Positions 5,352-51,610 of a stretch of 64,000 nucleotides of DNA are shown here, piece after piece. Both the position numbers and the translations under genes were made by a program. Numbering within the stretch: the first letter of the stretch is position 1; every line of letters begins with the position of its first letter. Source of the stretch: Caldisericota bacterium (GTDB lineage Bacteria; Caldisericota; Caldisericia; JAAYUI01); contig JAKPMO010000015.1 in the NCBI GenBank assembly GCA_029548865.1, forward strand, positions 10,482 through 74,481, written 5' to 3'. Under the pieces are notes generated by a model. It was not told the DNA's origin. It saw nothing but the letters and a program-made list of their open reading frames with translations, and searched no databases.

Positions 5352-5466
5352 CTCATTACTATTTTGTTGAGATTTTATTAAGCTTTTAACGTCTTGAAAG
5401 AACAAATTCGCTTCATATGATGTATGTGCTTTTGAAAATCCCAAAAGGACAGAGAGGAGTCTCAAC

Positions 5467-6060: not shown

Positions 6061-6080
6061 GAACCATTTTAAAGAACCAA

Positions 6081-6118
6081 CAAAAAAACCGGCTCAAAAC
6101 AGCCGGTTTTTTTGTTTT
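6081..6118 (+). terminator. Rho-independent terminator (CCGGCT...AGCCGG followed by a T-run)
   Basis: Hairpin ~6089-6106 followed by TTTTTTTGTTTT. Confidence 0.6.
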
Positions 6119-6172
6119 AATGACCTTTGACAAGCCAATTTTTGGGACTACTTTTTATGCGGAGGAATTTGA

Positions 6173-7126
6173 ATGAAGAAACTTGTTGCTTTTTTGCTGT
6201 TGGCCCTCTTTGCCATTTCCTGTGGCGGACAACCACCCACAAAACATGATGGCGGATGGTTCGAGATAGAATATGACCAGGGCATGAAAACTCTTGCCGA
6301 GGGTGATACATTCATGGTTTTTGATGATGAAATATTTATGAAAGTCCAGCCAAACATGGACTATTCAAACACCGAGAAGATTGAGGTCGCAAGACAATCT
6401 GCAAAACAACTCGTGGAGAGCATGAGCAAAGATACATCAAACACCGTGACCGAAAGGGAAAGCAAATGCGGCTCGATTCCATGTATCTGGGTTGAAGTTG
6501 AAAACAAAAACCAGGGCACAGGCGGCTTGATAATGTATGTACCAATACAAAATGTCGTTGTGTGGGTGGGCCTGGCACAACCAGTTAATCTTAAAACCGG
6601 CATGGACAAAGCCAGAAGAATTGCCGAAAGCTTCAGGATCAAGGACGAGGGTTATTTCAAAAACAGGGTGGAAGATTTCGCCAAGAATTACAATGTCAAT
6701 GGATCATCAAAGACAATCGAAACTGAGACATTCTCTATAACACCAGCAAAAGAGTGGGCAGGGGAAAAAGACCTGAAAAACAGCAATGTCAGGTTGCGCC
6801 TGCTTCCTGACAGCACAAAAGCAAAACAGACACCCTACGCACCAAACATAGAGGTTGGGATCATGGACAAAGGGCAAATGGCACTGGAGGAGTTCCTGGA
6901 ATCATTCAAAAATGCAATGGTAAACAAAGACAAGGTCGCTGGCCCAAAACCGTTCAAGTTTGCCGAAATGATGTATTACAGGTATGATTTGCCAGCAAAA
7001 AAAGACGGTGCCCCACTTATGTATATTGTTGGCGAAAAAGATGGCAAGATAATAAAAGCCCTGATTGCAGGGGAATTAAGCGGAGACATCGAAACGATGC
7101 TTGAAAGCATCAAGATAAAAAAATAA
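6173..7126 (+). CDS. Lipoprotein, two array domains (internal ...ESFRIKDEGYF, terminal ...ESIKIKK)
   Basis: MKKLVAFLLLALFAISCGG lipobox. GGAATTTGA-ATG context. Confidence 0.65.
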   Translation: MKKLVAFLLLALFAISCGGQPPTKHDGGWFEIEYDQGMKTLAEGDTFMVFDDEIFMKVQPNMDYSNTEKIEVARQSAKQLVESMSKDTSNTVTERESKCGSIPCIWVEVENKNQGTGGLIMYVPIQNVVVWVGLAQPVNLKTGMDKARRIAESFRIKDEGYFKNRVEDFAKNYNVNGSSKTIETETFSITPAKEWAGEKDLKNSNVRLRLLPDSTKAKQTPYAPNIEVGIMDKGQMALEEFLESFKNAMVNKDKVAGPKPFKFAEMMYYRYDLPAKKDGAPLMYIVGEKDGKIIKALIAGELSGDIETMLESIKIKK

Positions 7127-7138
7127 GGAGAGAAAAAA

Positions 7139-8092
7139 ATGAAAAAACTCCAAAACATTCTGCTGACAGTCATCATAGGGTTGACCCTTATTTCATGCGG
7201 AAAAACCACACTGGACGAAACTTATGAAGGGCCCTATTTCAGCATAAGCCACCCGGGTTCCTGGAAGGTCGAGGAAAATCCGTCTCTGACAACAATCAGT
7301 GGGGACGGCGTTGGAATAATGATCGAGTCCGTTCCAAACGAGCAAATAAAAGCAAATGATGTTGCCGAGATCAAGACATATTCAGACCAGCTCCTCAAAG
7401 AGCTTGGTGGAAACGAGGACTTCGACCTCTCAACCGAGGAGAAGGAAATAAATGGCCAGAAGGGTGTCTGGCTCTTGGCAAAGAGCAAGAAGGAAGAAAA
7501 GGGCGGGTTTATGTTCATTACGGCCGTCGACAAGGCCGTCCTCATGGTTGGTGTTGGCGCGGAGGTCGAAGGGCAGGAGAAGCTCGATCTTGTAAAAATG
7601 GCCATTGAGTCCTTCAAGATAACAAAACCTGACTACTTCACAAAAAAAGAGCCTGAAAAAAAGGACACCGAAACCACTCCAAAAACCGAAGAGACAAAAT
7701 TTGGCCAGCCGCTTGTGGCAGAAAAAATTACAATCACACCGCTTGAGGGTTGGACTTCCAAATATGAAAAACTCACCAGTACAATAACATTAACAAATGC
7801 GGCCAACAGAACGTTCTCGATGGTGATACTTGATCGCCAAGGAATGAAAAAGGACGACTATACAAAAAGCTTAAGAGAAGGCCTTAAGCAAAGTGCTGAT
7901 TTGAAGGTAAAAGAATCAACCGAAAAAATTGGTGAAATCGAATATGACAGGATTGATTTTTTGACAATGGATGGCAGAACCGCTATGACCGACCTTGTTG
8001 GAGAAAAAAACAACATCATGATAGTGATAATGATCCAGGATGGTCTCTCAAGCGACATACAAAAGATGCTTGAAACTATAAAAACAAACTAG
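7139..8092 (+). CDS. Lipoprotein, two array domains (internal ...ESFKITKPDYF, terminal ...ETIKTN) with a K/E/T-rich linker
   Basis: MKKLQNILLTVIIGLTLISCG lipobox. AGGAGAGAAAAAA-ATG ribosome-binding site, 12-nt gap to the previous gene. Confidence 0.65.
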   Translation: MKKLQNILLTVIIGLTLISCGKTTLDETYEGPYFSISHPGSWKVEENPSLTTISGDGVGIMIESVPNEQIKANDVAEIKTYSDQLLKELGGNEDFDLSTEEKEINGQKGVWLLAKSKKEEKGGFMFITAVDKAVLMVGVGAEVEGQEKLDLVKMAIESFKITKPDYFTKKEPEKKDTETTPKTEETKFGQPLVAEKITITPLEGWTSKYEKLTSTITLTNAANRTFSMVILDRQGMKKDDYTKSLREGLKQSADLKVKESTEKIGEIEYDRIDFLTMDGRTAMTDLVGEKNNIMIVIMIQDGLSSDIQKMLETIKTN

Positions 8093-13572: not shown

Positions 13573-14892
13573 CTATTTTTCTTCATATTCTGGCCCAAGA
13601 TCCATCTTGATAAGATCGTATTGGCCTTCTGCTGTATTCATGTAGTCACATTCCCAAACAGAATCTTCTGTGTAAAAATAGATTTTGTATGAGAGAAACA
13701 GAACGTTTACAACTTTTCCAGGGATTTCCCTGTAAGAATGTTTTCTAAACAATCTATTTTGGTTATCCCGGACTGTTTGCATATCATAGACCAACGTGGA
13801 ATCTGGATTGTATTGGCAAAAGTAATAAAGACTGATATCCGGAGTCCGTACATATGACAATGGTTTATAATCAACCTCGAACAATCTACTTGCAATAAAA
13901 TCTCCAGCATTATTCATACGGCTGTCAAATACACGCTTAGTACTTATATAAAACATAGCATTACTACCAAAATAGAACTCGTAATCAAGTTGCTTTGTGA
14001 AAGTTGTATCCAGGAACTCTCTTGAATAAATTACTGATTTATTGAATCTATCTATAAGATGGATCGCTTTACCATCATACAGACTGAAAAGCCAACCATA
14101 ACCATATCCCTCAAGGCTATTCAAATCATTAATTACACTCTTTGTTAAATCACCTTCCGTTCCCAGGTCTATTTTAAAATCAACAAGTAACTGGCCATCA
14201 ACAAACTTGTAAAAATAAACAATTTTGCCATCGTATCCGACCATTGTTGGTGACGTAGGGCTGAATTCGTTGTATCTCAGATCTGCAAAAAGCATTGGTG
14301 ATTCAAGAGATTTTATATGCCCTGTTTTCCCCCACGGATCACTTAGATAAAGCAACTTATTGTCATTTGACTGGCAGACAAGCAGAGCTTTATGATCCTT
14401 GTCATTATGAGAAATTGATATTATTTTATCAGCTTTTGTTGAGAAACTGGCTGATTTTGTCTCGTTTGCATTACCTTTTATTAGATTAGAATAATCAAAC
14501 TGATATAGAACAATTGTATTAGAGGTGTTGCCGCGACACAAGAATACTAAATAGTTTTTATCGTACTCACTATTGTGATATCCCCCAGATTCTGTCGTGG
14601 TTGTTGAGTTATTTTTTAGGGAATATGACAAAACTTCACCAGGCAGGTTGATTGTTTTGACTGGTTGCTGCAACAGTGGATCTTTGTATGTTGTTACCTC
14701 TTGGTCATTTACGAGTATTGGAAAAAACAATTCACGATGAACCTTTCCCTCATCGCTCAAGATACCAATTATTTTCCCTGGAGGTCTCTTATCGGACACA
14801 AGTTTGACCTCATATGGTTTTGCAAAGGAACAAGATGAGCAAAACAAAAATATAACCCCAAACAAAGATAATCCCCTGGACATTTTTTTCAT
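13573..14892 (-). CDS. Secreted Tyr-rich protein, low GC, LPGE-motif family member
   Basis: Signal peptide MKKMSRGLSLFGVIFLFCSSCSFA. Motif NLPGEVLSY ~85 aa from the N-terminus. Strongly AT-rich relative to the flanks. 19 nt downstream of the membrane protein gene at 14911-15888. Confidence 0.55.
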   Translation of the reverse strand: MKKMSRGLSLFGVIFLFCSSCSFAKPYEVKLVSDKRPPGKIIGILSDEGKVHRELFFPILVNDQEVTTYKDPLLQQPVKTINLPGEVLSYSLKNNSTTTTESGGYHNSEYDKNYLVFLCRGNTSNTIVLYQFDYSNLIKGNANETKSASFSTKADKIISISHNDKDHKALLVCQSNDNKLLYLSDPWGKTGHIKSLESPMLFADLRYNEFSPTSPTMVGYDGKIVYFYKFVDGQLLVDFKIDLGTEGDLTKSVINDLNSLEGYGYGWLFSLYDGKAIHLIDRFNKSVIYSREFLDTTFTKQLDYEFYFGSNAMFYISTKRVFDSRMNNAGDFIASRLFEVDYKPLSYVRTPDISLYYFCQYNPDSTLVYDMQTVRDNQNRLFRKHSYREIPGKVVNVLFLSYKIYFYTEDSVWECDYMNTAEGQYDLIKMDLGPEYEEK

Positions 14893-15888: not shown

Positions 15889-16057
15889 TATCTGCTCCTT
15901 TGTTTTTGTGGCCGTTTTCTAAAAAAATGATAGCCCAGCCCGCAAGGAAAGTAAACTTTTTGGGAACAAATCTGGCCAGAGCAAGCACGGGAAGGCGCAA
16001 CAGACAAAACGCCAAAACGCCCCGTATAAGAAATCAAATAACACAAGGAGGCAGAAG

Positions 16058-16807
16058 ATGAAGAAAATAGCAATATTTTTGGCCATTGCCAGTCTGGCAG
16101 TTGGCGCCTCATGGATACCACAAGCAAGAGCAGACGGGACAAGCGAGATAATAAGCAACCTCCCAGGGGACGCACAATGCCAGTTTGAGGTCTGGTGGAG
16201 AAAGGACCCGGGGACAACAATCGTCAATGAAGGCAAAACAGCAACGTTCAAGTTTGGGATCACCAACTGGGAATATCCGGACAAAATGCACTTTGTCATC
16301 ACAACATCAGACAAAAACATCCAGTTCCAGAAGACCGATTTCTACTCAAACGAGACTTTTATGGAGATGACAATCACGATCACAATGCCAAAGAGGCAGT
16401 CTGGCCAGAAGGTCGCCTACTGGAGCTTCAAGATCACCTCCGACTGTGGCAGGCATTATTCGGTCAAATTCCATGTCCACTACCCGGAGGAATGCTGCTC
16501 CTACAAGACATCCTGGGAAAAGGAGCCTGCAAGCTTCAAGGTTGCCCAGAACAAAACCTGCTCGTTCAAATTTGTGGTGGAAAACAAATGCAGCGAGGCC
16601 CCAATCGATTTCCAGCTCTCAAGCAACATATCATCACTCGGTTTTTCCAGAAAAAGCTTCACTGTCCAGCCCGGGAAAAAGTTTGAAATCACCGTGACCA
16701 TCAAACAGCCGTCCCAGGGTGGCAAGTCAAAATCGGACTGGAGCTTCAAGATAAAACCGGCATGCGGGCAGGAAAAGCAGATCAGTTTTAGTGTAAAATA
16801 TCCATAA
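16058..16807 (+). CDS. Secreted protein with two internal repeats each ending WSFKI...CG...(F/Y)SVK(F/Y)...YP (Ig-like?)
   Basis: AGGAGG-N6-ATG. Signal peptide MKKIAIFLAIASLAVGASWIPQARA. Repeats AYWSFKITSDCGRHYSVKFHVHYP and SDWSFKIKPACGQEKQISFSVKYP. Confidence 0.6.
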   Translation: MKKIAIFLAIASLAVGASWIPQARADGTSEIISNLPGDAQCQFEVWWRKDPGTTIVNEGKTATFKFGITNWEYPDKMHFVITTSDKNIQFQKTDFYSNETFMEMTITITMPKRQSGQKVAYWSFKITSDCGRHYSVKFHVHYPEECCSYKTSWEKEPASFKVAQNKTCSFKFVVENKCSEAPIDFQLSSNISSLGFSRKSFTVQPGKKFEITVTIKQPSQGGKSKSDWSFKIKPACGQEKQISFSVKYP

Positions 16808-16825
16808 TTTCAAAGAGACTTGGTG

Positions 16826-16858
16826 GAAAAAGCGGGGTTTTGCCCCGCTTTTTTTATT
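16826..16858 (+). terminator. Rho-independent terminator
   Basis: AAAGCGGGGTTTTGCCCCGCTTTTTTTATTTT. Confidence 0.65.
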
Positions 16859-16875
16859 TTTGGAGGGAGGGTAAG

Positions 16876-16930
16876 ATCTTATTGTTATAAAATCTGGATT
16901 GTTGTATATTGCCCTTTGAGGTGGCGCGAC
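16876..16930 (+). promoter_or_regulatory. Copy 1 of a duplicated ~52-bp promoter/leader element (TTGTTA-N17-TATATT followed by GAGGTGG)
   Basis: Near-identical to 18262-18316. Contains sigma70-like -35/-10 boxes with a 17-nt spacer and a Shine-Dalgarno-like GAGGTGG. Confidence 0.55.
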
Positions 16931-16938
16931 AATAACTA

Positions 16939-18156
16939 ATGCCAAAAAAACATTTACCAATATATAAGCATGCAATATTACTTCTAGTTGGGACAACACT
17001 ATTACTATTTCCGAAGAATACAGGTTCCAATAATACATTACCCACAAAAAAAGTGATATTCAAATCTGAATATATGATAAATAATCCATTTATTAATTCT
17101 AGATACATTGTCTGGTCCCAACATATCAAAGACGAGAGCGGCATCACTTACAAAATATTATCTTTTGATACAATTACAGGCAACTTAATAGAAGTCGCTA
17201 CCGATGATTCTTTGATGGAGATGCCGGGCGATAACAACATTTATCTGGGGATAGCTCATTGTTGTTGGATTAATATTGAGGGAAAGGGAGCCAATGCGTT
17301 TGTAATAAAGGGTAGCAAGGTTTATAATAATCGTTCTGAAATAAAAATCTCCAAAGGAAGACTGCCTTGGAAGAATGCCAATGTTTATAACAGCTATGTG
17401 ACGTATGTTGAAGCAAATGATGAAAATCTGTGCTCGTACGTTGTTGATTTATCAGAAATACAGCCAAAATACATTTTGCTTACTCAAAAAGCACGCGTTT
17501 CTACCACACCCAGGTTATCCCATAACCAAGTAGTATATGAAGCTACTGATGATGATGGTAATCCTTCTATATTTCTATATGATCTAGACAGGGGTACTTC
17601 TTTGAAAATATCACAAGATACTTTTCTTGCATCTAACCCTCACGTTACAAAAAATTATGTCTATTATTTATCCAGTTCCACTTCAAATGATACTGTAAAT
17701 GTAATGTGCTATGATATTAAGAACCATGAATACACCAATATTTATCAATTAAAAAAGGGGCTTCATATTAGCCTAATAAATAACCCTGATAGTGATCTAC
17801 TCATGTTTAGTACCCAGGGTGATGATCATGGCACTCCAAATATTATGTGCTACGATCCTTTTACAAAAAAAGTACTTTGCCTTGATAAATATCTTTCTGA
17901 GATAAATATGCCTGGTTCTATTGAACTCAATAGTGGATGCTCACAAGCTAGGGATATAGTTTTAATTGTAAAGAACGTTTTATTGATATTGAACGTTGAT
18001 AATTATGGGTCTATTAGCTGCAAATACATTGATAAATCAACAAATGGATCGATGAAAAAGCGCCTTGCAAGGATTTACTGCAATAATATAATTTGGGTAG
18101 AATCTCCAAATGGTAGCAGCATCTCACAACTATATTGTTTGTCATTGAGCAAATAA
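16939..18156 (+). CDS. Membrane-anchored extracytoplasmic protein, probable beta-propeller (TolB/DUF5050-like repeats?), low GC
   Basis: N-terminal TM helix AILLLVGTTLLLF. Recurring YV(T/Y)Y, VVYEATDDDGNPSIFLYDLDRG and DLLMFSTQGDDHGTPNIMCYD repeats. The annotated ATG lies 17 nt after the GAGGTGG, so the true start may differ. Confidence 0.45.
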   Translation: MPKKHLPIYKHAILLLVGTTLLLFPKNTGSNNTLPTKKVIFKSEYMINNPFINSRYIVWSQHIKDESGITYKILSFDTITGNLIEVATDDSLMEMPGDNNIYLGIAHCCWINIEGKGANAFVIKGSKVYNNRSEIKISKGRLPWKNANVYNSYVTYVEANDENLCSYVVDLSEIQPKYILLTQKARVSTTPRLSHNQVVYEATDDDGNPSIFLYDLDRGTSLKISQDTFLASNPHVTKNYVYYLSSSTSNDTVNVMCYDIKNHEYTNIYQLKKGLHISLINNPDSDLLMFSTQGDDHGTPNIMCYDPFTKKVLCLDKYLSEINMPGSIELNSGCSQARDIVLIVKNVLLILNVDNYGSISCKYIDKSTNGSMKKRLARIYCNNIIWVESPNGSSISQLYCLSLSK

Positions 18157-18261
18157 AACCTAAAGGGTTTTCTACCAACCTTGGAAGACAACAAAAAACT
18201 GTTTATTTCTACACAAATCGTGGGGTGTACAAATACCAGGAAAAATGATTCAAAATCAATC

Positions 18262-18316
18262 TCTTGCTTATTGTTATAAAACCTGGATTGTTGTATATTG
18301 CCTTTTGAGGTGGCGC
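18262..18316 (+). promoter_or_regulatory. Copy 2 of the duplicated promoter/leader element, immediately upstream of the ATG at 18318
   Basis: CTTATTGTTATAAAACCTGGATTGTTGTATATTGCCTTTTGAGGTGGCGCG-ATG. Differs from copy 1 at about 2 positions. Confidence 0.55.
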
Positions 18317-18317
18317 G

Positions 18318-19661
18318 ATGGACGGGGAAATGGAAGAGAAAAAACAGTTAGGATGGAAGGCAATTCTCAAGGAAATGCTTAAGCTAGTTCTTATTTTTAT
18401 ATTCATAATAACAACTGGGATTACCCTGATTGCTCTATGCTCTACGAATACAGACAACGACTTTTTTAACAAAATTAGAGAATTTTTCCAGCCAAAATTT
18501 ACCTATAAAGATTTTGCTCGACTTCCAAATACCAGCTTTTTGTTCAACCAACAATATCTGGGAGTGCTTGAGGTGGAGAATGATTTGACAGAATACATCG
18601 GCTTTGGAGATATCTTTCATCCAGTTTATTCATCTGGCAACAAGATTTTGATTTATCAGGACCAGAACCTTGAACAAGTTGCAAGAGAAATTGAACTCCC
18701 TGGGAATGTAATTGGTAAATCATTTGTTTATTTCTACGATAAAGACAATTCTAGCGCCAGCAATTGGCAATACTACTTTTTGACCCAAAATAATGGCAAG
18801 AATCATATCACAGCTTTCTTGAGCAACAGGTCTAACAATGAGCCACAATATGATCTTCAGCAAAAATTTTCAATTGAGACAAAGGGGACAAAGATAGTTC
18901 CGATAGAAGATTTTGATAATTTTCTTGCGTGCATAGATAATGAAGGCAAGACACTAACTGTTTACAAATCCAGTGGAGAGGTTTTTTGCAATAAAACATT
19001 TGCCAAAAAATCTGCATTTTTCATGATTGGCAAAAATGTTGTCCAATATGATGGCCAGAAGCTGGTTTTATTCACAATTGACAAAAATGATGTTCTCCAG
19101 AAAACAAGCATTTTACTGCCTGATAAAGGGGACGTCTCCAAAGCATCACTTGATGGTGAGAAACACTCAGAAAAGACGTGCTTTACAGACGGTTCAAATG
19201 CGTATTATCTTGATGAATATTTCAACTATATCGAGAAAGCCCCCTTTAAGGATGTGGAGAAATCCCTTTGTGAAGGAGATTTCCTTGTCTGCAAAGATAA
19301 ACTTGTGTCCAATATTCTATTTTCAAATACAGACACTGGCAACAAACCCCACTTCTACACTTTCGAATCTTCAACAGTTTTCAATGACAGGTTCAATTAT
19401 GCACTGCCTTTATTATATTGTTACAAAGTTTTTATGTTGGTAAAAAATAACCTGTTCACATTCTCACCGGTATTTGTATGGAGCAATATAAGAGAAAATC
19501 AAAAAGTGACATATTATGTTTACAGGATGCAAGGTACCCCATTTGGAAGGGTGAAAGGTTTCTTTTTGAAAAACCACAGTGAATTGTTCAAAGTATACGA
19601 GGTCGCATATTTTTATACGGACCACGGGGTCTACCGCTTCAAGGAAGTGACAGAAGACTAA
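18318..19661 (+). CDS. Membrane-anchored Tyr/Phe/Lys-rich protein, LPGE-motif family member, low GC
   Basis: N-terminal TM LVLIFIFIITTGITLIAL. Motif EIELPGNVIGKSFVYFYD. Confidence 0.5.
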   Translation: MDGEMEEKKQLGWKAILKEMLKLVLIFIFIITTGITLIALCSTNTDNDFFNKIREFFQPKFTYKDFARLPNTSFLFNQQYLGVLEVENDLTEYIGFGDIFHPVYSSGNKILIYQDQNLEQVAREIELPGNVIGKSFVYFYDKDNSSASNWQYYFLTQNNGKNHITAFLSNRSNNEPQYDLQQKFSIETKGTKIVPIEDFDNFLACIDNEGKTLTVYKSSGEVFCNKTFAKKSAFFMIGKNVVQYDGQKLVLFTIDKNDVLQKTSILLPDKGDVSKASLDGEKHSEKTCFTDGSNAYYLDEYFNYIEKAPFKDVEKSLCEGDFLVCKDKLVSNILFSNTDTGNKPHFYTFESSTVFNDRFNYALPLLYCYKVFMLVKNNLFTFSPVFVWSNIRENQKVTYYVYRMQGTPFGRVKGFFLKNHSELFKVYEVAYFYTDHGVYRFKEVTED

Positions 19662-19959: not shown

Positions 19960-22900
19960 CTAGTAGTATCTGGTCATCGTTATCGTCTTCTCGTCGCCGT
20001 TCCACTGCACCTCTGCGCCAAGCGCCTCGGCTATGAACCTGAACGGGAGGACTGTCCTGCCGTCTTTTATCAACGGCGGCTGTTCAAGCTGGGAGATCTT
20101 TCCATTCACAATGGCGACCTTCGAGCCGATTGTCATCATGATCAGGTCCTTGCCAAGGGTTATGGTCACCTGCTTGACCTGGGCATTCCAGTCCACTTTT
20201 GCGCCAAAGGCCTGGGCAATCGCCCTGACAGGCACAAGTGTCCTGCTGGTTTGCGGGTCAACATAAGGTGCCACATCGAGCTTGCTTATCTGGCCATCGA
20301 CAAGCATAACATCGTTTCCTATCTTCATCTGAACCAGCTTTATCTGCCAGTTGTACAGCTCAAGGGTCGGCCTGGACTGGTTGCCAAGGGCATCGGTTGC
20401 CTCAAACTTGAATGTGTTTTTGCCAAGCACAAGATCGAGTGTGACCACAAACTTGCCCGGCCCGACTTCGATGATTTTTCCATCAATGGCCAGCTTTGCT
20501 TTCTCGCTGGCATTGCCTTCAACCTCAACCTGCTTTGCATTCACAAGCTTTGTTTTCGGCTGGACAAATTCAACCACTGGCGGGGTCGTGTCTTTTGTGA
20601 TGGTGATCTTCTTGGAAATCTTTGTGCCAACAGGATTGGCGGCAATGACTTCGATTTCGTTTACACCTTCCTTGAGTGTGACAGTGACAAAGAACACGCC
20701 ATCAGCGCCAACGCTCACCGGGTTTCCACCAACAGAGACCACTGCCTCGGAGTTTGTCTTGCCCCTGATTGTTATCTGGTCTTCTTTTGTAAGAGATGGC
20801 ACCTCTTCAATCTCAAGAGGCGGCGGGGCGACAGGTGAAACAACTTCTATTACCTGCGGGTTCACCGTTATGTATGTTCCGCTGTCCAGCCTGGCGACTA
20901 TCTTGCCTGGCTTTGTCGGTAGGACATCAAATTCAACTTCACCCTTTGGCCCTGTCTTGGCCTCCATCATGACGCCTGCTCCTTGCACCGTTACAGTGAC
21001 ATTGGAGAGTGGCGCCCTGGAGGCAACGTCTTCAACCGTGACGGCGATCTTCTTCTGGAGTCCGGGGTAGAAGGTGCCGGCATAAACAACATTGAGGCTT
21101 GCGCCCTTTGCAACATCAAACTCAAGCGACTTGCGGGCTATGACAACGTCTTCCCCGAATGTGGCCTTTGCCTTATAGCTGAGGGTTGCAACCGATGTGC
21201 CGGTGTTGCTTGTCGGCGTGTAGTGGACAATGGCCTCGGAGGCCTTTGGGTCAACCTTGCTCTGGGTGGTCTCGACGCTGGTTTTTACTTCAGACTTTGC
21301 GCCCACGCTTGCGACTTCAATTATTCCACCAGGCTTTATCGGGTCCGTTTCCTTCTGACATGCTGGCGTCACCCTTGCCACAAAAACATTGTCGGTGCCA
21401 TAGGCAAGGTCGTAATTGGAAGGCGACAGGAACCCTGTGGAAAGCTCATCGCCGACGTTCTGGTCATAGAGCCTTATAACAGGCTGCTTTATCGGAACAT
21501 TGGTTACTGTCGGGGTGTCCCAGTCGAGTGCAAATGTGCCATCGCCCTTGTACCTGAGGAGCGGATTGAAGGCCATCGACTGTGATCTTGGGGCATCGCC
21601 GGCAACATCTCCCTTGATGACCGATGCCTTGTTGGCACCGAGCAGGCCGCCAACCATAAACACCTGGTCAGCAAAGACGTAGAAGGTAACATTTCCATTT
21701 TCATCCGGGTTGAGCGAATCCTTGTAGTCAATCCTCGAATCACCGTTGAAATCAGAGAAGAAGTAGTTGCCTGCGATCTCGGAGTTGTACACGCAACCCT
21801 TGCCCCAGCTCTTCAGGTCTATTGTTGAGCCATCGAGCTTTGCGCTCGTCTTGCATCTTACAGACATTGGCTTGACAAGGTTTGAAGTGGAAGAGATTTC
21901 GCCTGTTGATGAAATCCCGAACCTGTTGAAATAAGTCAATTTTTCCGGATCAGCGCCGGCGTCAAGGACAAGGAACGGGGTAAACCTGATAAAATCTGTC
22001 GAAGAGCCATACTTGCCCGGCAGTTTTGACGAGCCCTTGAGCAGCTGGCCCTGTGCGTCCTTGAGTGTTGCAACAACCTTGTAAACGCGGCGGTCAAGGC
22101 CGGTCATGCAGGCCTCTGGTTCCTCCGGCCACTTCATTGTGACAGCATCGCCTGTTGCCACGTTGGTTATCGAATAGGTAACCTTTGGTCTTGCGACCTT
22201 GATTGAACCTACACCCCAACTCTTGTAGTCGGACGAGCGTACTTTTATCTGTATTTCACCCTCGTCATTGGCCACAAAACCTGTGAACTTGTATATGCCT
22301 TTGGAGGCCTGCGAGAAATCGTAGCCTATCGGCTTGAACTCGCCAAACAGGTGCTCATTGTCCGATATTGTGCCATCTTTGTTGCGCAGTGAGGTCACTG
22401 TCCAGTAATAGGCACCAACACGTTCCGGTCTGGCATCAGATATGAAGCTGACTGCCTCTTCCGGCTTCAGCTTCCCACCCTTGGTTAGGTCGACCGGCCT
22501 GCCGTTTATGTCCTTTATGGTAAAGGTCAGTGGCTGGTTCGAATTGACAACCTCGGGGGAAACGCCCGCAGTCACAATGCCTGGATTGACTTCAATGATG
22601 ATGTTGGGGTCCTTTGATACCCCGCCACCTGGCTCCGGATACATGCTTACCTGGCCGGCAAGGTAAACCTCGTGCGAGTAGTACTGCCTGGTTCCAGGGA
22701 CGTTCCAGAGAGGGGCAAAGCTCCTGTCGTTGTTATCATCATAATATTTGTAAACGGTCAGATTGACCGGCAATCTTTCGTCCTCTGCAATAACATGGTC
22801 ATTGTTGAAATCAAGGCCGGCATCTTCAATCCTGCAGCCGTTTGAAAGGCTCATGTCAAAGACATACCTGCCGTTGTTGCGCTGATAAGTCCTTGCATCA

Positions 22901-25900
22901 ATGATGCCGCCCACCCAGCTGTTGGTCGCCAGGTTGTAGGCGCCAATGAGCTCGGTTTCGTAGGCATCAAAAGAAATTCTTCCGTCACCGTTCAGGTCCA
23001 TGTCACTGCTGAAGGCGCCAGCCGAGCCGGAGCCAACAGAGGATGACGGGCCGTTTGTCACCCAGCCATCGCCTGCGCCAAAGAAAACGTTGCCGCCCAT
23101 CTGCTGGAGGACACCCCTGTCCTGCCAGACATAGGCCATTGCATCGTTGCATTCCCTGACCACCTGGATGTCTTCCCATTCGGTGATTTTGACATCAAGG
23201 ACGTTGTCGGCAATGATTCCGAGTGTCCCGGGTGCACCTTCTATGTGGAGCCCGTGGACCGGGATTCCCTGTATCCTGTACTCCTGGCAGCAATCTTCCC
23301 AGATCCTTGACTGGCCGTTTGCCAGCTTGACTTCGATCCTTATGACACCTCTGTCAACCGGGATTATCTCGTCAAAAACAAACACGTTGCCATTGACCAT
23401 CGAATAGTCCAGCCTTCTGCTCTGGAGGAGCCTCTGGTTGGCCTGCTGGTAGACATAGCGGTCCTTGAATCCAGGGTTTATGATCCTGGTGAAGTCTTGC
23501 GGGGCAAGCTCGTAGTCTCTCCAGTTGGTCTGGTCAACCACAATCCTGCCAGAATAGTCATACTGTACTGGCACATTCCTGAGGCCATTGTATGTATAGT
23601 CGGTGATCGGGAATCTTGGCGTCATGAATGGCCCGGTTATTTCTATCCACTGTATCTTGTGGTCGCTGTCTGTTGCATTGAACGAGAGGAACTCGCTCCT
23701 TGCATTTGTGAGCATAAAGAAAAGACCATAATCTGTGAGAGGCAGGAACTCTGTTCCAAGCTTCCACACCTGGTCGCGGAATATGGCAGGATATGCGTTC
23801 CTTCCGTCCCCCATTCCACCTTGCACCCTGATTGGGTGTGTCTGTCCACCAGGATATGCCCTGAATTCCCTGACAAGATTTGAAAGAACAGGGTCATAAG
23901 GTGACTGTATCTGGGAGGCCGGGGGTGGCATCCTGGACAGGGCACCAGAGCCAGAGGTGTAGTTGACGCTGGAGTACTGGAGGGCGTGGTCAATTGCGGT
24001 AAATTCGACGAAATTGATGTCTCCATAACCACCGGAGCCACCACCCCCGCCGCCTCCTCCTCCACCACCGCCACCACCTCCGCCTCCACCGCCTCCTCCA
24101 CCGGAGGCAGTTGGCGGGATGACGTGGACACCACAATAGTCGGTGCCCTTGGCAGGCGAGGTGATAAAGTATGGTGGGTGGGTGATTGTGCTGTTGTAAT
24201 CCCAAAGTGCATTATCAGTGTGCACCCTTACATTCAGGCTGGAGGTGCGGTCTGGTGGCCAGCAGGCCACCATTATGCTTCCACCTGGATCGGCCCATGG
24301 GGTCGTCTTGTATGTGGTGACAAAGCATGGCACACCATACGTTTCAATGACTGGCAAATTGACGCCGTCAAACTGGCCCCATGTGTCGCCTTTGGTCACA
24401 ACACCCATTTTTTCGAAGCCCTGGCCACAGATGTCGCATTCTGCAAATCTTCCAGAGCAGTCTATATCAACAAGACTGCCTGAATTGATATTGCCCTGTG
24501 TCGGCCCAACAACAGTGTCTTCCTGGTCAAGTGCGCCAATGGCACCAATGCCTGGCGTCGGGCTCTGGTTGTCGTTCCAGGCCCAGTAATAGTATGTGCC
24601 ATCCTTGTTGACCTGGACTATGTATCTGTTTGTGCCAGTGCCAGCGGTAAACATCCAGTCGATGCCGGCCCCTGTGCAATTGTAGTAGGCAATAATATTG
24701 CCTGCAGAAGCCGTGGTTGAGATGTTGACGCCATTGAGGTCATTCACATCATATGGGTTGTCAAAATCTTTGAGGGTCAAAACAAAGTTCGGGTAGCGGG
24801 TCGAGATGTTTGTAAGACAGACGGTGCTGCAGTCAAAATACATGTCTTCCGGCTCCACCGTGAACTCTTTTGCCAGGTAGCAGTCATAGTTGTTCGGAAT
24901 AATGGTGTTGTTCAGGATCTGCGGGGAAGGAACAACCCAATATCCGTAAGTTCCATCTGGCGGGCCTCCCCAACCAATGTCTTGTGGTTTGCCAGTACCC
25001 TTTTCATAATAAACCTCTATAAGATATGGGTGAATCCTGCCAAATTCGTCGCAAGAGCCTTCATAGGGAGTTATCTGGACAGTGGCTCTTGGGCGATCTT
25101 TGGTTATCGTTCCAGCAACGTTTCTCTGGCCTGAGGCATCAGTCAGCACTATGTAGGCTATTCTGCCTTCGTCAGGCGCCGGGTTCATTGTCAAATTGAC
25201 TTCCGAGGTCTGTTCGACCTTGAACGGTCTCGAGACATTCACCTGCACAGGTGCAACACCCGGCAGGACCTCCATGTCCATGAAGCGGAAATTGCCGCAC
25301 CTTCCAACAGTTATACCAGAAATCGGATAGCTCCTTATGTAAAGCTCAGGGCCGGCAACAACCGTTCCGCACTGATAGGTGTTGCCATTCTTGTTGACCA
25401 CCGTCAGACGAACGTCACCGGCAGTTACGGAGTTGGAAAGATCATTGTCCTGATAAATCCATTCACCCTCTTCAAACTCGTTGTTATTGTTGGCATCAAA
25501 CCAGCCAACGTTCGTGAATGGACGAATAATATAGCCATTATCGACATCACCGGCTGAAACATACGAGCCAGCCTCATAGGTGACTATAGCTCCACCAACA
25601 CTAAACGTGACGGTGGTCATACGCTTGTCGCCAGGGTTGACGATGTCGTTCATGAACGGGTCCTGGGCGGTGTTGAGGTTGTCATATATCGGCTCGCCAC
25701 AGCCAAAACCGGTTCCGCCGCTGTCGTAATACCTGAAGCTTGCCGGGAAGGGTTTTAGTGGGAGGCCGGTATCGGAATCATTCACTCCTGAATTTGAGGC
25801 GCCAATGAAATCCTCACAGGCATACAAGGCCTTGTAGTCATCAGAAAGGTTTTGGGCAAAGCACTGACCTTGCGGGTTGTTGATATTGTTTTCACCAGAA

Positions 25901-26784
25901 TCCCTAAATATCTCAATGCCTACGTAGCTCCTGTAAGACGGCTTAACATTGAAAAAAGTGGTTGCCGGGACCTGAAAATCCAGGCCAGTAGGGCCAAGCA
26001 CGGTTGATTTCTGGATTCTCTGCGATCTTCTGAGTGTCGGGTTTTCAGGGTCAAAGATTGATGCAGCGGTAACGGCCGGATTGACGCCTTCCCACATATC
26101 GGTTTCAACCGAGAGGTTGTAGGAGGTGTTCGGATCGCAAGATGCAAGGAAGGTCTCTGACATGACAAGAGCCATTCCATTGCCAGGAAGCGCAGCCTGC
26201 CCCAACTTGAAAAGCCTCCCTGAAAAATTGCGCGGGAAGGTGTATGGGCCATGTTGATGGCTGATCGGCGTGAACCAGTAGCCCTTGTTGTGGAAGAAGT
26301 TTGCATAGTCGCCGACCCTATATGGGCCCTGTGTGTTGTTGGCCGGAGTATTGTCTGTCTTGAAGTTGTAGTCGTAACACTGACCTGGCGGGTCTGGTCT
26401 TGCTCTTTCGGCAGCATTGTGGAAATAGCCGTCCGGGTCAAACCAGATGTTGCCGTTTGAGTCCAGGATGCAGTTCATCTTGTCTTTTTCAGTGGACTGC
26501 CCGCCTGCACCAATAACGGTAAGATAAACTTCCGACCAATACCTTGGCTGGGACGGCATCGGAAATTGCTGCCTGCCCCACCAGGTGGAAATATCGCCGG
26601 AAGTCCACGGAACGACCCTGCCGGAGAGTGGCTGGCCGCTCCTGTCCTGTCCAAGCGGAGACCACCTGACTACTGCAAAAAGTATGTTTTTTGTTTCGGC
26701 ATAAGCCTGTGGTATTTCGCCAAAAAACGGAACCACGGTGAGCGCCACCGCGAGCGTTAGCATTGTAGCCAAGAGCTTTCTCAT
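19960..26784 (-). CDS. Giant secreted surface protein (~2275 aa). Large conserved N-terminal body shared with the paralog at 56852-64000, a 24-Gly tract, Ca-binding-like DxDxDG loops, C-terminal Ig-like (Big) domains and two copper-amine-oxidase N-terminal (CAO-N) type wall-association domains.
   Basis: GAAAGGAG-N8-ATG at 26784 gives the signal peptide MRKLLATMLTLAVALTVVPFFGEIPQAYA. C-terminus LVPVRAIAQAFGAKVDWN...GRTVLPFRFIAEALGAEVQWN fits CAO-N repeats. DMDLNGDGRISFDAYE is EF-hand/dockerin-like. Long stretches are alignable with the second giant ORF. Confidence 0.8.
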   Translation of the reverse strand: MRKLLATMLTLAVALTVVPFFGEIPQAYAETKNILFAVVRWSPLGQDRSGQPLSGRVVPWTSGDISTWWGRQQFPMPSQPRYWSEVYLTVIGAGGQSTEKDKMNCILDSNGNIWFDPDGYFHNAAERARPDPPGQCYDYNFKTDNTPANNTQGPYRVGDYANFFHNKGYWFTPISHQHGPYTFPRNFSGRLFKLGQAALPGNGMALVMSETFLASCDPNTSYNLSVETDMWEGVNPAVTAASIFDPENPTLRRSQRIQKSTVLGPTGLDFQVPATTFFNVKPSYRSYVGIEIFRDSGENNINNPQGQCFAQNLSDDYKALYACEDFIGASNSGVNDSDTGLPLKPFPASFRYYDSGGTGFGCGEPIYDNLNTAQDPFMNDIVNPGDKRMTTVTFSVGGAIVTYEAGSYVSAGDVDNGYIIRPFTNVGWFDANNNNEFEEGEWIYQDNDLSNSVTAGDVRLTVVNKNGNTYQCGTVVAGPELYIRSYPISGITVGRCGNFRFMDMEVLPGVAPVQVNVSRPFKVEQTSEVNLTMNPAPDEGRIAYIVLTDASGQRNVAGTITKDRPRATVQITPYEGSCDEFGRIHPYLIEVYYEKGTGKPQDIGWGGPPDGTYGYWVVPSPQILNNTIIPNNYDCYLAKEFTVEPEDMYFDCSTVCLTNISTRYPNFVLTLKDFDNPYDVNDLNGVNISTTASAGNIIAYYNCTGAGIDWMFTAGTGTNRYIVQVNKDGTYYYWAWNDNQSPTPGIGAIGALDQEDTVVGPTQGNINSGSLVDIDCSGRFAECDICGQGFEKMGVVTKGDTWGQFDGVNLPVIETYGVPCFVTTYKTTPWADPGGSIMVACWPPDRTSSLNVRVHTDNALWDYNSTITHPPYFITSPAKGTDYCGVHVIPPTASGGGGGGGGGGGGGGGGGGGGGGSGGYGDINFVEFTAIDHALQYSSVNYTSGSGALSRMPPPASQIQSPYDPVLSNLVREFRAYPGGQTHPIRVQGGMGDGRNAYPAIFRDQVWKLGTEFLPLTDYGLFFMLTNARSEFLSFNATDSDHKIQWIEITGPFMTPRFPITDYTYNGLRNVPVQYDYSGRIVVDQTNWRDYELAPQDFTRIINPGFKDRYVYQQANQRLLQSRRLDYSMVNGNVFVFDEIIPVDRGVIRIEVKLANGQSRIWEDCCQEYRIQGIPVHGLHIEGAPGTLGIIADNVLDVKITEWEDIQVVRECNDAMAYVWQDRGVLQQMGGNVFFGAGDGWVTNGPSSSVGSGSAGAFSSDMDLNGDGRISFDAYETELIGAYNLATNSWVGGIIDARTYQRNNGRYVFDMSLSNGCRIEDAGLDFNNDHVIAEDERLPVNLTVYKYYDDNNDRSFAPLWNVPGTRQYYSHEVYLAGQVSMYPEPGGGVSKDPNIIIEVNPGIVTAGVSPEVVNSNQPLTFTIKDINGRPVDLTKGGKLKPEEAVSFISDARPERVGAYYWTVTSLRNKDGTISDNEHLFGEFKPIGYDFSQASKGIYKFTGFVANDEGEIQIKVRSSDYKSWGVGSIKVARPKVTYSITNVATGDAVTMKWPEEPEACMTGLDRRVYKVVATLKDAQGQLLKGSSKLPGKYGSSTDFIRFTPFLVLDAGADPEKLTYFNRFGISSTGEISSTSNLVKPMSVRCKTSAKLDGSTIDLKSWGKGCVYNSEIAGNYFFSDFNGDSRIDYKDSLNPDENGNVTFYVFADQVFMVGGLLGANKASVIKGDVAGDAPRSQSMAFNPLLRYKGDGTFALDWDTPTVTNVPIKQPVIRLYDQNVGDELSTGFLSPSNYDLAYGTDNVFVARVTPACQKETDPIKPGGIIEVASVGAKSEVKTSVETTQSKVDPKASEAIVHYTPTSNTGTSVATLSYKAKATFGEDVVIARKSLEFDVAKGASLNVVYAGTFYPGLQKKIAVTVEDVASRAPLSNVTVTVQGAGVMMEAKTGPKGEVEFDVLPTKPGKIVARLDSGTYITVNPQVIEVVSPVAPPPLEIEEVPSLTKEDQITIRGKTNSEAVVSVGGNPVSVGADGVFFVTVTLKEGVNEIEVIAANPVGTKISKKITITKDTTPPVVEFVQPKTKLVNAKQVEVEGNASEKAKLAIDGKIIEVGPGKFVVTLDLVLGKNTFKFEATDALGNQSRPTLELYNWQIKLVQMKIGNDVMLVDGQISKLDVAPYVDPQTSRTLVPVRAIAQAFGAKVDWNAQVKQVTITLGKDLIMMTIGSKVAIVNGKISQLEQPPLIKDGRTVLPFRFIAEALGAEVQWNGDEKTITMTRYY
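24018..24117 (-). repeat. GGN-codon microsatellite-like tract encoding G24SGG inside the giant protein
   Basis: Plus strand reads ccaccggagccaccacccccgccgcctcctcctccaccaccgccaccacctccgcctccaccgcctcctccaccggagg. The spurious Arg/Trp-rich ORF 23990-24205 is a frame artefact of this tract. Confidence 0.7.
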
Positions 26785-26909
26785 CTTGAAACTCCTTTCG
26801 ATGCATTCATGGCTGATTTGCTTCAAATACACGAAATCTTGGGGTCAAGTTCAAAATTGGGGAGGGTGCTGATGTCTTGATAAAAAATAGAATCTTTTTT
26901 TGAAGACAA

Positions 26910-26944
26910 ACAAAAAAGGCGGGGGCAACCCCGCCTTTTTTGTT
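26910..26944. terminator. Bidirectional rho-independent terminator (downstream of htrA)
   Basis: AAAAAAGGCGGGGGCAACCCCGCCTTTTTTG. Confidence 0.65.
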
Positions 26945-26968
26945 CCAGAAGGTACTTATTGGTGATGG

Positions 26969-28285
26969 CTATTCCGCAGCAGCACCAAGTTTAACGTTAA
27001 AGGTCATCTCTCTTCCATCCCTGCTGACCCTGATCTTGACGACATCTCCCACTTGATGGTTCCTTACCTCAACAAGGAGTCCTTCAAAATCTGTAACTTC
27101 CTTTCCATCTATTGCGGTGATGATATCACCCCTCTGTATTCCTGCTTCCTGGGCACCACCCTTTTCAACCACTGCTATGTATGCACCTGACGCATACTTC
27201 AAACCAAGCTGCGAAGAGAGGTCCTGTGTGAGTGTTGCGCCCCTGACACCAAGCACTGGCCAGCCCACCTTGCCGAACTTGATGAGGTCTTTGGCAACTC
27301 TTGACGCAACATTTGAGGAGACTGCAAAACCTAGATTTTGTGCACCCTCAATAATGACTGTATTGATTCCGACCACCTTGCCATCCAGTGTCACAAGTGG
27401 CCCACCGGAATTGCCTGGGTTGATGGCGGCATCCGTCTGAACAACTCCGACCAGCATACGGCTTTTATCTACCTGTATGTTTCTGGCAAGGGCCGAGATA
27501 ACGCCCGTTGTGACTGTATTTTCAAACTTGTATGGGTTGCCTATTGCAACGACCGGCTGACCAACTTTCAATTTTGAGGAGTCCCCGAGCTCGGCCATTG
27601 GAAGATTTTTCTCTTTCACCTTGAGGATAGCAAGATCGGAAAGTGAATCTGTGGCGACAATCTGGGCCTCAAAATTCCTCTTGTCTATGAGGTGGACAAC
27701 GATCTTTTGGCCATTCTCCACAACATGGTTGTTGGTGAGGATAAAACCTTGTTCATCAGTCCAGGTATTTTTTATTATGACACCAGAACCTGCCGCCTGC
27801 TCGACCCTTACTTGAGGCTGCTGTCTGGCAAATGGGTTGACGTTATTGTCGTTGTTGAAGAACTGCTCAAAAGGATTGTCAAACTGCAATATGGAGTTTG
27901 TAATTTCCTTGTCAACAGTTATCGAGACAACAGCAGGAGATACTTTATTTACCACATCAACAACACCGTCGTAGAACATCTGCTGATTTATCGGGGTTTC
28001 CGGCACCGGCTGCTGGATCACCACGGTACTATTTTTGTTGTCTGCAAGCCTGTATCCCAGGAACCCTGAGAGGCCACCAAAAAGCACCGAGAATACAAGA
28101 GCAAGGGCAATAATTCCGCCCCATCTCGGGGTGTTCTGCCTGTCTGCCTGTCTGCCACCATTTATATTCATCTGCGAATACTGCGGTTTCTCCTCATGAG
28201 CTGGTTCCTTGTACTCAGTATCAATAGTTTCCGGCTCTTCAGTTTTATCTATCGGGGTATAGTTATACTCTTCCTCAAATAACAT
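26969..28285 (-). CDS. htrA: HtrA/DegP-family serine protease, membrane-anchored, with C-terminal PDZ domain
   Basis: AAGGAGG-N8-ATG. N-terminal TM GGIIALALVFSVLFGGLSGFLGY. Catalytic motif GNSGGPLV. PDZ-like C-terminus. Confidence 0.85.
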   Translation of the reverse strand: MLFEEEYNYTPIDKTEEPETIDTEYKEPAHEEKPQYSQMNINGGRQADRQNTPRWGGIIALALVFSVLFGGLSGFLGYRLADNKNSTVVIQQPVPETPINQQMFYDGVVDVVNKVSPAVVSITVDKEITNSILQFDNPFEQFFNNDNNVNPFARQQPQVRVEQAAGSGVIIKNTWTDEQGFILTNNHVVENGQKIVVHLIDKRNFEAQIVATDSLSDLAILKVKEKNLPMAELGDSSKLKVGQPVVAIGNPYKFENTVTTGVISALARNIQVDKSRMLVGVVQTDAAINPGNSGGPLVTLDGKVVGINTVIIEGAQNLGFAVSSNVASRVAKDLIKFGKVGWPVLGVRGATLTQDLSSQLGLKYASGAYIAVVEKGGAQEAGIQRGDIITAIDGKEVTDFEGLLVEVRNHQVGDVVKIRVSRDGREMTFNVKLGAAAE

Positions 28286-28298
28286 CTATTCTTCCTCC

Positions 28299-29408
28299 TT
28301 ATAGCTTTCTTATGACAAGCCTCTTGTCCAGTATCAGGTTTCCAAAACCGTCTATCTTTATGGCTTGTTCAGGGTAAAAGTTGACCTGGTAAGGCTTTCC
28401 GGCATCACCAGTTGGCTTGACAAGGGCCACCATCTTTCCTTCAATCATTTTTTGCGCCTGCACCTCTGAAATCCCCATCTCTACAAGGGAATTTGTTTTT
28501 TCCGGCCAGAGGGGCATCAAAAGCAACAGTGTGAAGCAGAGCACTGTAGCAAGAGATTTGTGCGCCACAAGTTTTTCTTTCTTTGGTTCGAGCAAAGCCA
28601 TGGTTCTCTCCTCGAGTCCGCCAGAAGAAAGATTTGCGGCCACTCTTACCGGTGAACAGAGCTTTGCAACACCTATAAGTGCTTCCGCAAGCGGGAAGGG
28701 TGAACCAATCGCCTTTATTGCAAGGCGGTCAGTCTCCTTTTCAAGCTCCAGCGAATAGCTCTTCCAGGCAAACTTTCCTGGAAGATACGAACAAAGTGCA
28801 ACATTGAGCGTCCAGAGCCACATGTTGATTATGTCTCTGCGCCTTATGTGGGCCATCTCATGGGCAACAACTGCATCAAGTTGCTCTTTTGAAAGCCCCT
28901 TTATCAAATTTTCTGAAATGTAAACAGAGTTTAGGGTCGAGAAGGCCTCGGAACCTGAATTGCCAAGAAAAAAAGTTGTGCTCCTGGTGTCTTGCCCGCC
29001 AAATCCACGAGAAAGCGATTCCCTGAAAGATTTTGGTGCGACACGGTACCCTCTGGTCCTTGAGGACAGCAGAAACAGCCCAAACCCAAGGCGGAAAGTA
29101 ACAAAACCGATTACGATCCACGGCGCAGCGATGAGAAGATAATGCCAGAAGGTCGGCTCCAGCGTGACATTGGCTCCGTAAATAATACCCTCTGTGGAAA
29201 AGAGCTTTGTTGGTGTGAGGGTGAGTTTTACTGTCTCCGGAACAAGACTGGAGAGCATTATGAAGCCGGCAGAAAACCCAAAGAGGGACGCCAGTGACAC
29301 AAAAATTGACCAGCCCAGCCCCTTCGGGGAGAGCTTCCTGCCAAGCAGGAACCACAAGAACGGCCACGCCACAACCAGATAAAGGGCAAAAACAAGACTA
29401 TTTTCCAT
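28299..29408 (-). CDS. BlaR1/MecR1-like M56 family membrane metalloprotease-transducer lacking a penicillin-binding sensor domain
   Basis: Multi-TM N-terminus. HEXXH zinc motif VVAHEMAHI. 369 aa with only a ~70-aa extracytoplasmic C-terminal tail. Confidence 0.8.
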   Translation of the reverse strand: MENSLVFALYLVVAWPFLWFLLGRKLSPKGLGWSIFVSLASLFGFSAGFIMLSSLVPETVKLTLTPTKLFSTEGIIYGANVTLEPTFWHYLLIAAPWIVIGFVTFRLGFGLFLLSSRTRGYRVAPKSFRESLSRGFGGQDTRSTTFFLGNSGSEAFSTLNSVYISENLIKGLSKEQLDAVVAHEMAHIRRRDIINMWLWTLNVALCSYLPGKFAWKSYSLELEKETDRLAIKAIGSPFPLAEALIGVAKLCSPVRVAANLSSGGLEERTMALLEPKKEKLVAHKSLATVLCFTLLLLMPLWPEKTNSLVEMGISEVQAQKMIEGKMVALVKPTGDAGKPYQVNFYPEQAIKIDGFGNLILDKRLVIRKL

Positions 29409-29814: not shown

Positions 29815-29880
29815 GATGGTGGGTATTTTACAATCAATAGTACTACAGTCAATAGTATAAGATTAAGGAATGGTTTCGTG
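29815..29880 (-). promoter_or_regulatory. Candidate promoter/operator of the blaI operon: 9-bp direct repeat TCAATAGTA x2 flanking the palindrome TAGTACTA
   Basis: Plus strand TTTTACAATCAATAGTACTACAGTCAATAGTATAAG lies immediately upstream of blaI. BlaI/CopY operators are TACA/TGTA-type dyads. Assignment is by inference only. Confidence 0.35.
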
Positions 29881-51438: not shown

Positions 51439-51610
51439 GAATTATTTGTGAAGATTGGAAACAAAGCCATGATTATTTCCATGAAACCATAAAAAAGTAT
51501 GCATTAGAAAAATCCAGTTTCCTTCAACTCCGTATATTGCATTCGGTGTTGTTTCTGGAATCACACCAACCTTCAAATTTTCATAATTTTTTCAGTGATA
51601 ATTGTCTTTA

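Follow-up and report, generated by a model that had tools for sequence, protein, structure and literature searches.

A duplicated 52-bp promoter-like block in front of two unrelated beta-propeller genes in a hypervariable surface-protein locus of Caldisericales

Two adjacent genes in a 64,000-nt stretch of Caldisericota DNA (assembly GCA_029548865.1, contig JAKPMO010000015.1, positions 10,482 to 74,481 of the forward strand; hereafter the window) are each preceded by a nearly identical copy of a 52-nt sequence, designated element E. The genes code for proteins of 405 and 447 amino acids (aa) that are unrelated in sequence. The reading that we prefer, with a probability of about 0.6, is that a unit of promoter and gene was duplicated in tandem within a hypervariable surface-protein locus, that the body of the first gene was afterwards replaced by a different one while E was retained, and that recombination between the two E copies has led to loss or exchange of genes.

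The two copies of E are direct repeats on the plus strand (copy 1, 16878-16929; copy 2, 18267-18318), start 1389 nt apart and are identical at 50 of 52 positions, the mismatches falling at repeat positions 16 and 37 only. Both contain the hexamers TTGTTA and TATATT separated by 17 nt (16882-16910 and 18271-18299; −35 hexamers at 16882-16887 and 18271-18276, −10 hexamers at 16905-16910 and 18294-18299), followed by the Shine-Dalgarno (SD) sequence GAGGTGG (16918-16924 and 18307-18313). In copy 2 the SD lies 4 nt from the start codon of the 447-aa gene, and the A of this ATG (18318) is the final base of E; in copy 1 the distance from the SD to the ATG of the 405-aa gene (16939) is 14 nt. Similarity between the two units stops at the A of the ATG, and the genes have no common signal-peptide coding segment. 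An earlier, sequence-only reading of the window had described a near-identical repeat with about 2 nt of difference, GAGGTGG at 4 nt from the start in copy 2, and a near-consensus promoter. The repeat and the SD spacing were confirmed; of the promoter, the hexamers and their spacing are present, but 'near-consensus' was too strong a term for a sigma-70 consensus score of 9/12 in both copies, which is common in this window. E further contains an internal direct repeat (ATTGTTATA ... ATTGTTGTATA). No inverted repeats were found within or around E, and no terminal inverted repeats; folding of E with the downstream bases gave no RNA structure signal (z −0.38 and −0.74 for the two copies), and Rfam searches over the region (E-value mode) and the whole window (gathering thresholds) returned no family over E, the matches elsewhere in the window being weak terminator-like ones at 16769-16862 and one tRNA.

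Allowing up to three mismatches, E occurs exactly twice in the 64-kb window and not at all in 100 shuffled versions of it. Both copies are carried by at least 21 independently assembled public contigs (NCBI, JGI, ENA and Logan), from independent samples and assemblers, and the two-copy arrangement recurs, with substitutions of its own, in a lineage about 10% diverged (L019 and L022; related sequences are given L numbers throughout). Shuffles, contigs and diverged lineages together rule out an assembly artefact or a chance similarity, for which nothing speaks beyond the general risk attached to metagenome-assembled genomes (MAGs) and which we regard as a negligible possibility.

Both genes behind E lie on the plus strand and have a low G+C content, 0.33 for the 405-aa gene (16939-18156) and 0.36 for the 447-aa gene (18318-19661); across the window, the values of 1-kb blocks lie between 0.34 and 0.57. 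The 405-aa gene is lineage-restricted and the 447-aa gene is a hypervariable allele. No sequence homology was detected between the two proteins (BLASTP E 0.19; hhalign probability 0.6%), which bears out the earlier statement that they are not homologous. The 405-aa protein falls into only 2 clusters among 5.8 billion proteins; a word-indexed homologue search returned same-locus orthologues or alleles only, and distant relatives, some of them PD40-repeat proteins, were found by exhaustive profile search only. Two further members of the small, low-GC family of the 447-aa protein are encoded in the window, at 13573-14892 (minus strand) and 22-1359 (plus strand; BLASTP E 1e-9 to 1e-6). Pfam searches with the 405- and 447-aa proteins and with 439- and 445-aa paralogues gave no family above cut-off. 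AlphaFold2 models predicted a transmembrane (TM) helix at residues 3-23 of the 405-aa protein (mean predicted local distance difference test score, pLDDT, 84), with Foldseek matches to TolB and acylaminoacyl-peptidase propellers, and at residues 13-40 of the 447-aa protein (pLDDT 75), with matches to BamB/WD40 propellers. According to these models both proteins are N-terminally anchored beta-propellers, the 405-aa one of TolB/PD40 type, alike in architecture and different in family; since they share a TM helix and a propeller, the cargo behind E is not arbitrary. The ratios of non-synonymous to synonymous substitution (dN/dS) against orthologues, 0.18 for the 405-aa gene (compared with L019) and 0.22-0.28 for the 447-aa gene, indicate that both are real genes under purifying selection. 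The minus-strand open reading frames (ORFs) 16727-17047 and 18209-18472 are present and read through E; they are uncalled in the public contigs of the locus, and their dismissal as artefacts in the earlier reading holds. A 45-aa plus-strand ORF (18245-18382) that spans E copy 2 is likewise uncalled in public contigs and is most likely a by-product of the repeat.

The position and the conservation of E point to a role in expression. Upstream of copy 1 lies the gene for a 249-aa Ig-like protein (16058-16807), whose intrinsic terminator (16822-16858, plus strand) consists of a hairpin of −22.7 kcal/mol (z −4.97; as stable in 0 of 200 shuffles) and a T run, has a stem perfectly conserved in L019 and ends 20 nt before E. 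In the single-copy relatives L017, L018 and L024 terminator, E and ATG follow one another in the same order with no other feature between them, and E fills nearly the whole gap. Among the 9 distinct E variants that were collected, 9 positions are variable, none of them among the 18 motif positions of the −35, −10 and SD (P = 0.014). Compared with L019, the two E copies of the window differ at 2-4 of 52 positions, whereas 13 of 73 columns have changed in the spacer between the 249-aa gene and E, and the spacer behind the 405-aa gene shows 10 mismatches and 39 gap columns. Synonymous divergence of the neighbouring genes amounts to about 0.3-0.4 in the same comparison. Because E lies between a strong terminator and a start codon and its motifs are invariant among relatives, it can plausibly be read as a promoter (−35/−10) plus SD block within which transcription would be initiated, and the two genes behind it would then be co-regulated. 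The near-identity of the copies fits purifying selection on such a promoter and ribosome-binding site (RBS) function, and gene conversion between the copies may have contributed. The E copies of L019 are identical at 52 of 52 positions and both carry G4/A47, while both copies of the window carry A4/G47; this is suggestive of concerted evolution, although the informative sites are too few to tell it apart from purifying selection.

A pointer to the origin of the duplication lies in the 110-nt spacer between the 405-aa gene and E copy 2. Positions 18162-18246 are 87% identical to L009 12567-12652, which are the final 86 nt of a 424-aa allele of the downstream gene, and the same match was obtained in L021. 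This relic (18162-18248, plus strand; 87% identity over 86 nt), now non-coding spacer, reads in frame as ...KTVYFYTNRGVYKYQEK followed by a stop codon (TGA, 18246-18248) and covers the final ~28 codons of a 424-aa-type gene. No significant terminator structure was found in the spacer that holds it. In L019 the relic is decaying by deletions and E is intact. The sequence-only reading had proposed that the expression cassette rather than the gene was copied, which is contradicted by a 424-type gene end standing after the 405-aa gene: a relic in front of copy 2 suggests that a whole unit of promoter and gene was duplicated and that its interior was replaced later. As expected for a duplication, the repeats are arranged head to tail and both ends of the unit (E and the gene-end relic) are recognisable; the interiors of the units are not paralogous, having the fold class alone in common, so that the interior of one copy must have been replaced. 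Between the repeats the unit now consists of E, a foreign ORF, the 424-type 3' end and ~20 nt. The incoming 405-aa ORF brought only 9 nt of upstream sequence and no SD of its own, and would therefore depend on E.

In the ancestor, a unit made up of E, a 424-type gene and about 25 nt of downstream DNA would thus have been duplicated in tandem. The body of the upstream copy would then have given way to the 405-aa TolB-like propeller gene, the exchanged segment beginning with the base that follows the A of the ATG and ending ~28 codons short of the stop. The incoming gene would have arrived without promoter or RBS and would now use those of E. What has remained of the duplication would be E, under selection and perhaps also subject to gene conversion, and the decaying 3' relic. 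The 52-bp repeats would be substrates for ordinary homologous recombination: crossing-over between them would delete the 1389-bp unit precisely, and copy 2 would provide the sole upstream homology for exchanging the downstream gene while keeping the 405-aa gene. Both this order of events and the recombination pathway are what we infer from sequence comparison.

Relatives lacking one copy of E are in line with such precise loss. In L017 (94% flank identity) window position 16929 is joined directly to 18271, one E is left and exactly the 1389-bp unit is absent; a single E directly after the terminator was also found in L018, L024 and L025, and from L018 and L024 exactly this unit is likewise missing. 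Three further relatives, L019, L022 and L015, show ~89% flank identity, and L019 and L022 carry both E copies together with an orthologous 406-aa gene; the sequence available for L015 breaks off ahead of the place where a second copy would lie. Synonymous divergence (dS) from L019 is 0.38 for the 405-aa gene and about 0.28-0.38 for neighbouring genes, a similarity which implies that the unit dates back to the divergence of the two clades. Midpoint-rooted trees of the flanks gave the groups ((window, L009), L017) and ((L018, L024), (L019, L015/L022)), with one-copy and two-copy genomes in both clades; the simplest reading would thus be an ancestral two-copy state followed by at least two independent precise losses. 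L018 and L024 also share a 727-nt deletion (15988-16714) that removed most of the 249-aa Ig-like gene and kept its last ~90 nt and the terminator in front of E.

The genes behind E, and those at a nearby site, are exchanged among relatives. Alleles of 447/450, 424 and 451 aa (39-40% identity) stand behind E in different genomes, and in L018 (3907-6061, minus strand) an unrelated 690-aa PQQ-like gene with an AGGAGG RBS of its own and a GTG start is found in this place, with a 56-codon relic ORF (MDGEIEEKN...) between E and the gene. Tandem repeats occur within the 690-aa gene, as does a masked run of N. At the 439-aa paralogue (13573-14892, minus strand), the segment 13569-14900 is replaced in L015, L019 and L022 with borders exactly at the gene ends, and L019 has a gene for a 245-aa PLDc_2 (PLD-like) protein instead; the site of the 439-aa gene forms a second replacement slot close by. 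The locus is of the replacement type and hypervariable. Over the 11.3 kb between 6939 and 18269 the window and L009 differ by 1 single-nucleotide polymorphism (SNP), and from ~21213 to 27700 every 500 nt hold 0-1 differences; between these regions lies a divergent ~3-kb tract (18270 to ~21200) with the 447-aa and the 424-aa allele, respectively. The tract opens with a difference at 18270, the fourth position of E copy 2. Such a tract agrees with an import by homologous recombination, the mechanism being deduced from the pattern of differences. L019 and L022, which are 98.5% identical, show a mosaic pattern of SNPs over L019 9811-11349, in which one patch breaks off 9 nt short of E copy 1 and a second extends from the 406-aa gene across E copy 2 and ends 5 nt past it; these patches, too, point to homologous recombination. 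Because a two-copy recipient and a one-copy donor share no other homology upstream of copy 2, the upstream crossover would be confined to E. Of the recombination and switching between copies envisaged in the sequence-only reading, traces of recombination are thus present (the precise absence of the unit and the tract at copy 2); reversible switching within a strain is not among these traces.

Several observations weigh against this reconstruction or parts of it. With regard to E as a promoter, the AT-rich window contains 22 promoter matches scoring 9/12 where 12.1 are expected, a transcription start ~7 nt past the −10 would leave a leader of only ~12 nt before the ATG at 18318, and the SD-ATG spacing of the 405-aa gene is long (14 nt). 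So few E variants are available that selection and gene conversion are inseparable. The tree is midpoint-rooted and the locus recombinogenic, which makes a two-copy ancestor with two losses less than certain, and a difference at position 4 of copy 2 leaves almost no E upstream of it, a poor fit to a crossover inside E unless this SNP arose independently. For the order of duplication and replacement the relic is the only witness, and one insertion carrying E, gene and relic would have left the same structure. Such a single-step event could have been a Campbell-type integration, at a resident E, of a circularised or linear foreign fragment made up of E, the 405-aa gene and the relic, for instance an alternative allele from another strain, by which E would have been doubled without a prior tandem duplication. 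The unit is indeed flanked exactly by direct repeats of E, single-copy genomes exist, the locus demonstrably imports DNA by recombination, and whole ORFs have been replaced inside the same frame in other relatives such as L018. The junction of the relic and ~20 nt with the 5' edge of E is, on the other hand, the signature of a head-to-tail duplication, no genome was found to carry a donor allele of E, the 405-aa gene and the relic that lacks a second E, and the dS of 0.38 for the 405-aa gene, which is like that of its neighbours, makes the event an old one; nothing sets donor and resident apart. We therefore consider integration in one step unlikely, and doubling of E without an earlier tandem duplication equally so.

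Two other explanations concern the nature of E itself. Were E mainly the operator or the regulatory leader on which one specific factor acts, the near-identity of its copies would reflect selection for strict co-regulation of both propeller genes instead of a generic promoter role. Its conservation far exceeds that of the non-coding DNA around it, it has the internal direct repeat mentioned above and it lies ~10 kb from a BlaI/BlaR1-like regulator pair, all of which would suit an operator. The substitutions, though, spare the −35, the −10 and the SD and fall in spacer and inter-motif positions that would be expected to be constrained in an operator or an RNA structure; neither an RNA structure signal (z −0.4 to −0.7) nor an Rfam match was obtained over E, and nothing resembling E lies upstream of the paralogues at 22-1359 and 13573-14892. 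A primarily regulatory element is, on this balance, rather improbable. Still less can be said for E as the recombination site of a dedicated cassette system (att- or integron-like, or the end of a small mobile element) with the 405-aa gene as a mobile cassette. The precise presence or absence of an E-bounded unit and the low-GC cargo would fit such a system, but the end of the resident gene survives as a relic inside the unit, inverted repeats, hairpin potential and an imperfect palindrome are all missing from E, and the element is confined to one locus. A scan with an exact 20-mer of the 185,579 species-representative genomes of GTDB found one stretch in each of 3 Caldisericales genomes, always at the present locus (a match in a member of the Clostridia, L016, was discarded as a bare 21-mer chance match), and a 25-mer scan of JGI metagenomes found 3 stretches, again all at this locus. 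Short-word blastn detected no E-like sequence elsewhere in the window and flanking loci (~150 kb), and none upstream of the paralogues (the 445-aa gene in L011 and the 325/439-aa operon); nor is there any next to the homologue in L026, the closest that the 405-aa gene has in a foreign genome. The sequence-only reading had named copies at many unrelated loci as the mark of a generic repeat or miniature inverted-repeat transposable element (MITE); with no inverted repeats and one locus per genome in the exact-word scans, which leave room for divergent copies elsewhere in the genome, E does not qualify as a MITE or dispersed repeat. No Pfam match to an integrase, transposase, invertase or recombinase was found among the ORFs within ~10 kb either side and ten further ORFs (29.9-31.3 kb, 47-56.5 kb and 22-1356), a scan that did not extend to the remaining ~18 large ORFs in the window. 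As neither a recombinase nor inverted repeats nor additional copies were found, a mobile-element or integron reading was rejected, and a dedicated cassette system is in our estimation very improbable.

Among known systems, the tandem duplication with later replacement and recombination that we favour comes closest to minimal mobile elements and replacement-type flexible genomic islands (Saunders and Snyder 2002), whose content differs among closest relatives between conserved flanking genes and is exchanged by homologous recombination (PMC3787668). As in those, alternative and partly non-homologous low-GC genes occupy the same slots (the 447-, 424-, 451- and 690-aa genes at one, the 439-aa gene or the PLD-like gene at the other) in genomes that are 89-99.9% identical elsewhere, a clonal pair differs by a discrete ~3-kb import, and no mobility genes were found at the locus. 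Unlike in minimal mobile elements, one boundary is here a 52-bp promoter block, present twice, instead of a conserved flanking gene, and the duplicated block also permits precise loss of the gene between its copies; natural transformation is not known from this uncultured lineage. The vsp genes of Mycoplasma bovis and the vpma genes of M. agalactiae each have a ~70-bp highly conserved 5' non-coding block and a conserved signal-peptide segment, and their loci adjoin a Xer-type recombinase (PMC3365025). A near-identical short expression block upstream of divergent tandem genes for surface-anchored proteins is common to these loci and ours, a likeness by resemblance only: here there are only two copies, conservation does not reach beyond the A of the 405-aa gene's ATG, no signal peptide is shared, the two genes come from different families and do not make up a multigene family, no nearby recombinase was found, and nothing points to high-frequency switching inside one strain. 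Integron cassettes are likewise single-gene units gained and lost at a fixed site downstream of a fixed sequence, but at our locus no integrase and no attC-like palindrome were found, each unit has its own promoter, and plain homology suffices. Tandem segmental duplication that includes the promoter, followed by loss through direct-repeat recombination, is part of general bacterial genome dynamics. The present case resembles it in the head-to-tail repeats, the two recognisable unit ends and the precise single-copy derivatives in relatives, and differs from it in that one interior is an unrelated ORF fitted almost exactly into an old expression frame.

E is, then, a conserved, putative promoter/RBS block that would double as a homology arm in a replacement-type variable locus; it does not represent a new class of element, and the genome plasticity seen here is of an ordinary kind, no dedicated machinery having been found. 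The locus provides a record at base-pair resolution of remodelling at a hypervariable surface-protein site in an uncultured anaerobic-digester lineage (Caldisericales), in which a promoter/RBS block outlives the gene behind it and, once duplicated, makes it possible for genes to be lost precisely and for alleles to be exchanged. An unrelated ORF that takes over an existing promoter, and short repeats that serve as recombination handles without mobile-element machinery, can both be seen here in a clean natural example, and E is a candidate native promoter/RBS for a phylum without genetic tools. A more far-reaching view, which we put forward tentatively and hold to be doubtful, is that E is selected as an 'expression adaptor', whose duplication creates a recombinase-free, homology-driven cassette site for unrelated membrane-anchored beta-propeller genes. 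Genes might then be slotted in, stacked, deleted and exchanged behind the same promoter/RBS while gene conversion keeps the copies identical, a scenario to which we would assign a similarly small chance. Hints in this direction are the almost exact fit of the ORF, the tract edges at E in two independent strain pairs and the identical copies of L019. If true, the uncultured phylum Caldisericota would possess a minimal expression-site system for surface variation, with pressure from phages or predators as the presumed driver.

The exact-word scans place the locus in MAGs of Caldisericales/Caldisericia, and contigs of the same locus include JGI, ENA and Logan metagenome assemblies. Neighbouring genes encode envelope proteins, including a BamB/PQQ-like propeller, the 249-aa Ig-like protein and a 2290-aa surface protein, as well as an HtrA-like protease and the BlaR1/BlaI-like pair. 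The gene for the BlaI-like repressor (29398-29814, minus strand), which is followed by a BlaR1/M56-M48-like gene and the HtrA-like protease gene, has directly upstream a 15-nt tandem motif (TACAATCAATAGTAC, 1.9 copies, 29829-29857) that looks operator-like. A comparison of E with BlaI-type operators, made by eye only, gave no convincing match. The 2290-aa gene (19960-26832, minus strand) contains a run of 23 glycine codons (24038-24103), an imperfect 12/21/24-nt tandem repeat, and its product has a 33%-identical paralogue encoded at 56852-63901. At 49648-52864 a stretch of lower GC (0.39-0.40) with a Peptidase_S9 gene and a 'Bact_hydrolase' gene adjoins a tRNA-Ser(GGA) gene (52773-52864); no integrase was detected in this stretch. 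At 4404-8092 lie three genes for lipoprotein-like paralogues in tandem (315, 317 and 317 aa; 22-34% identity), which are assigned to no Pfam family in the annotations of public contigs.

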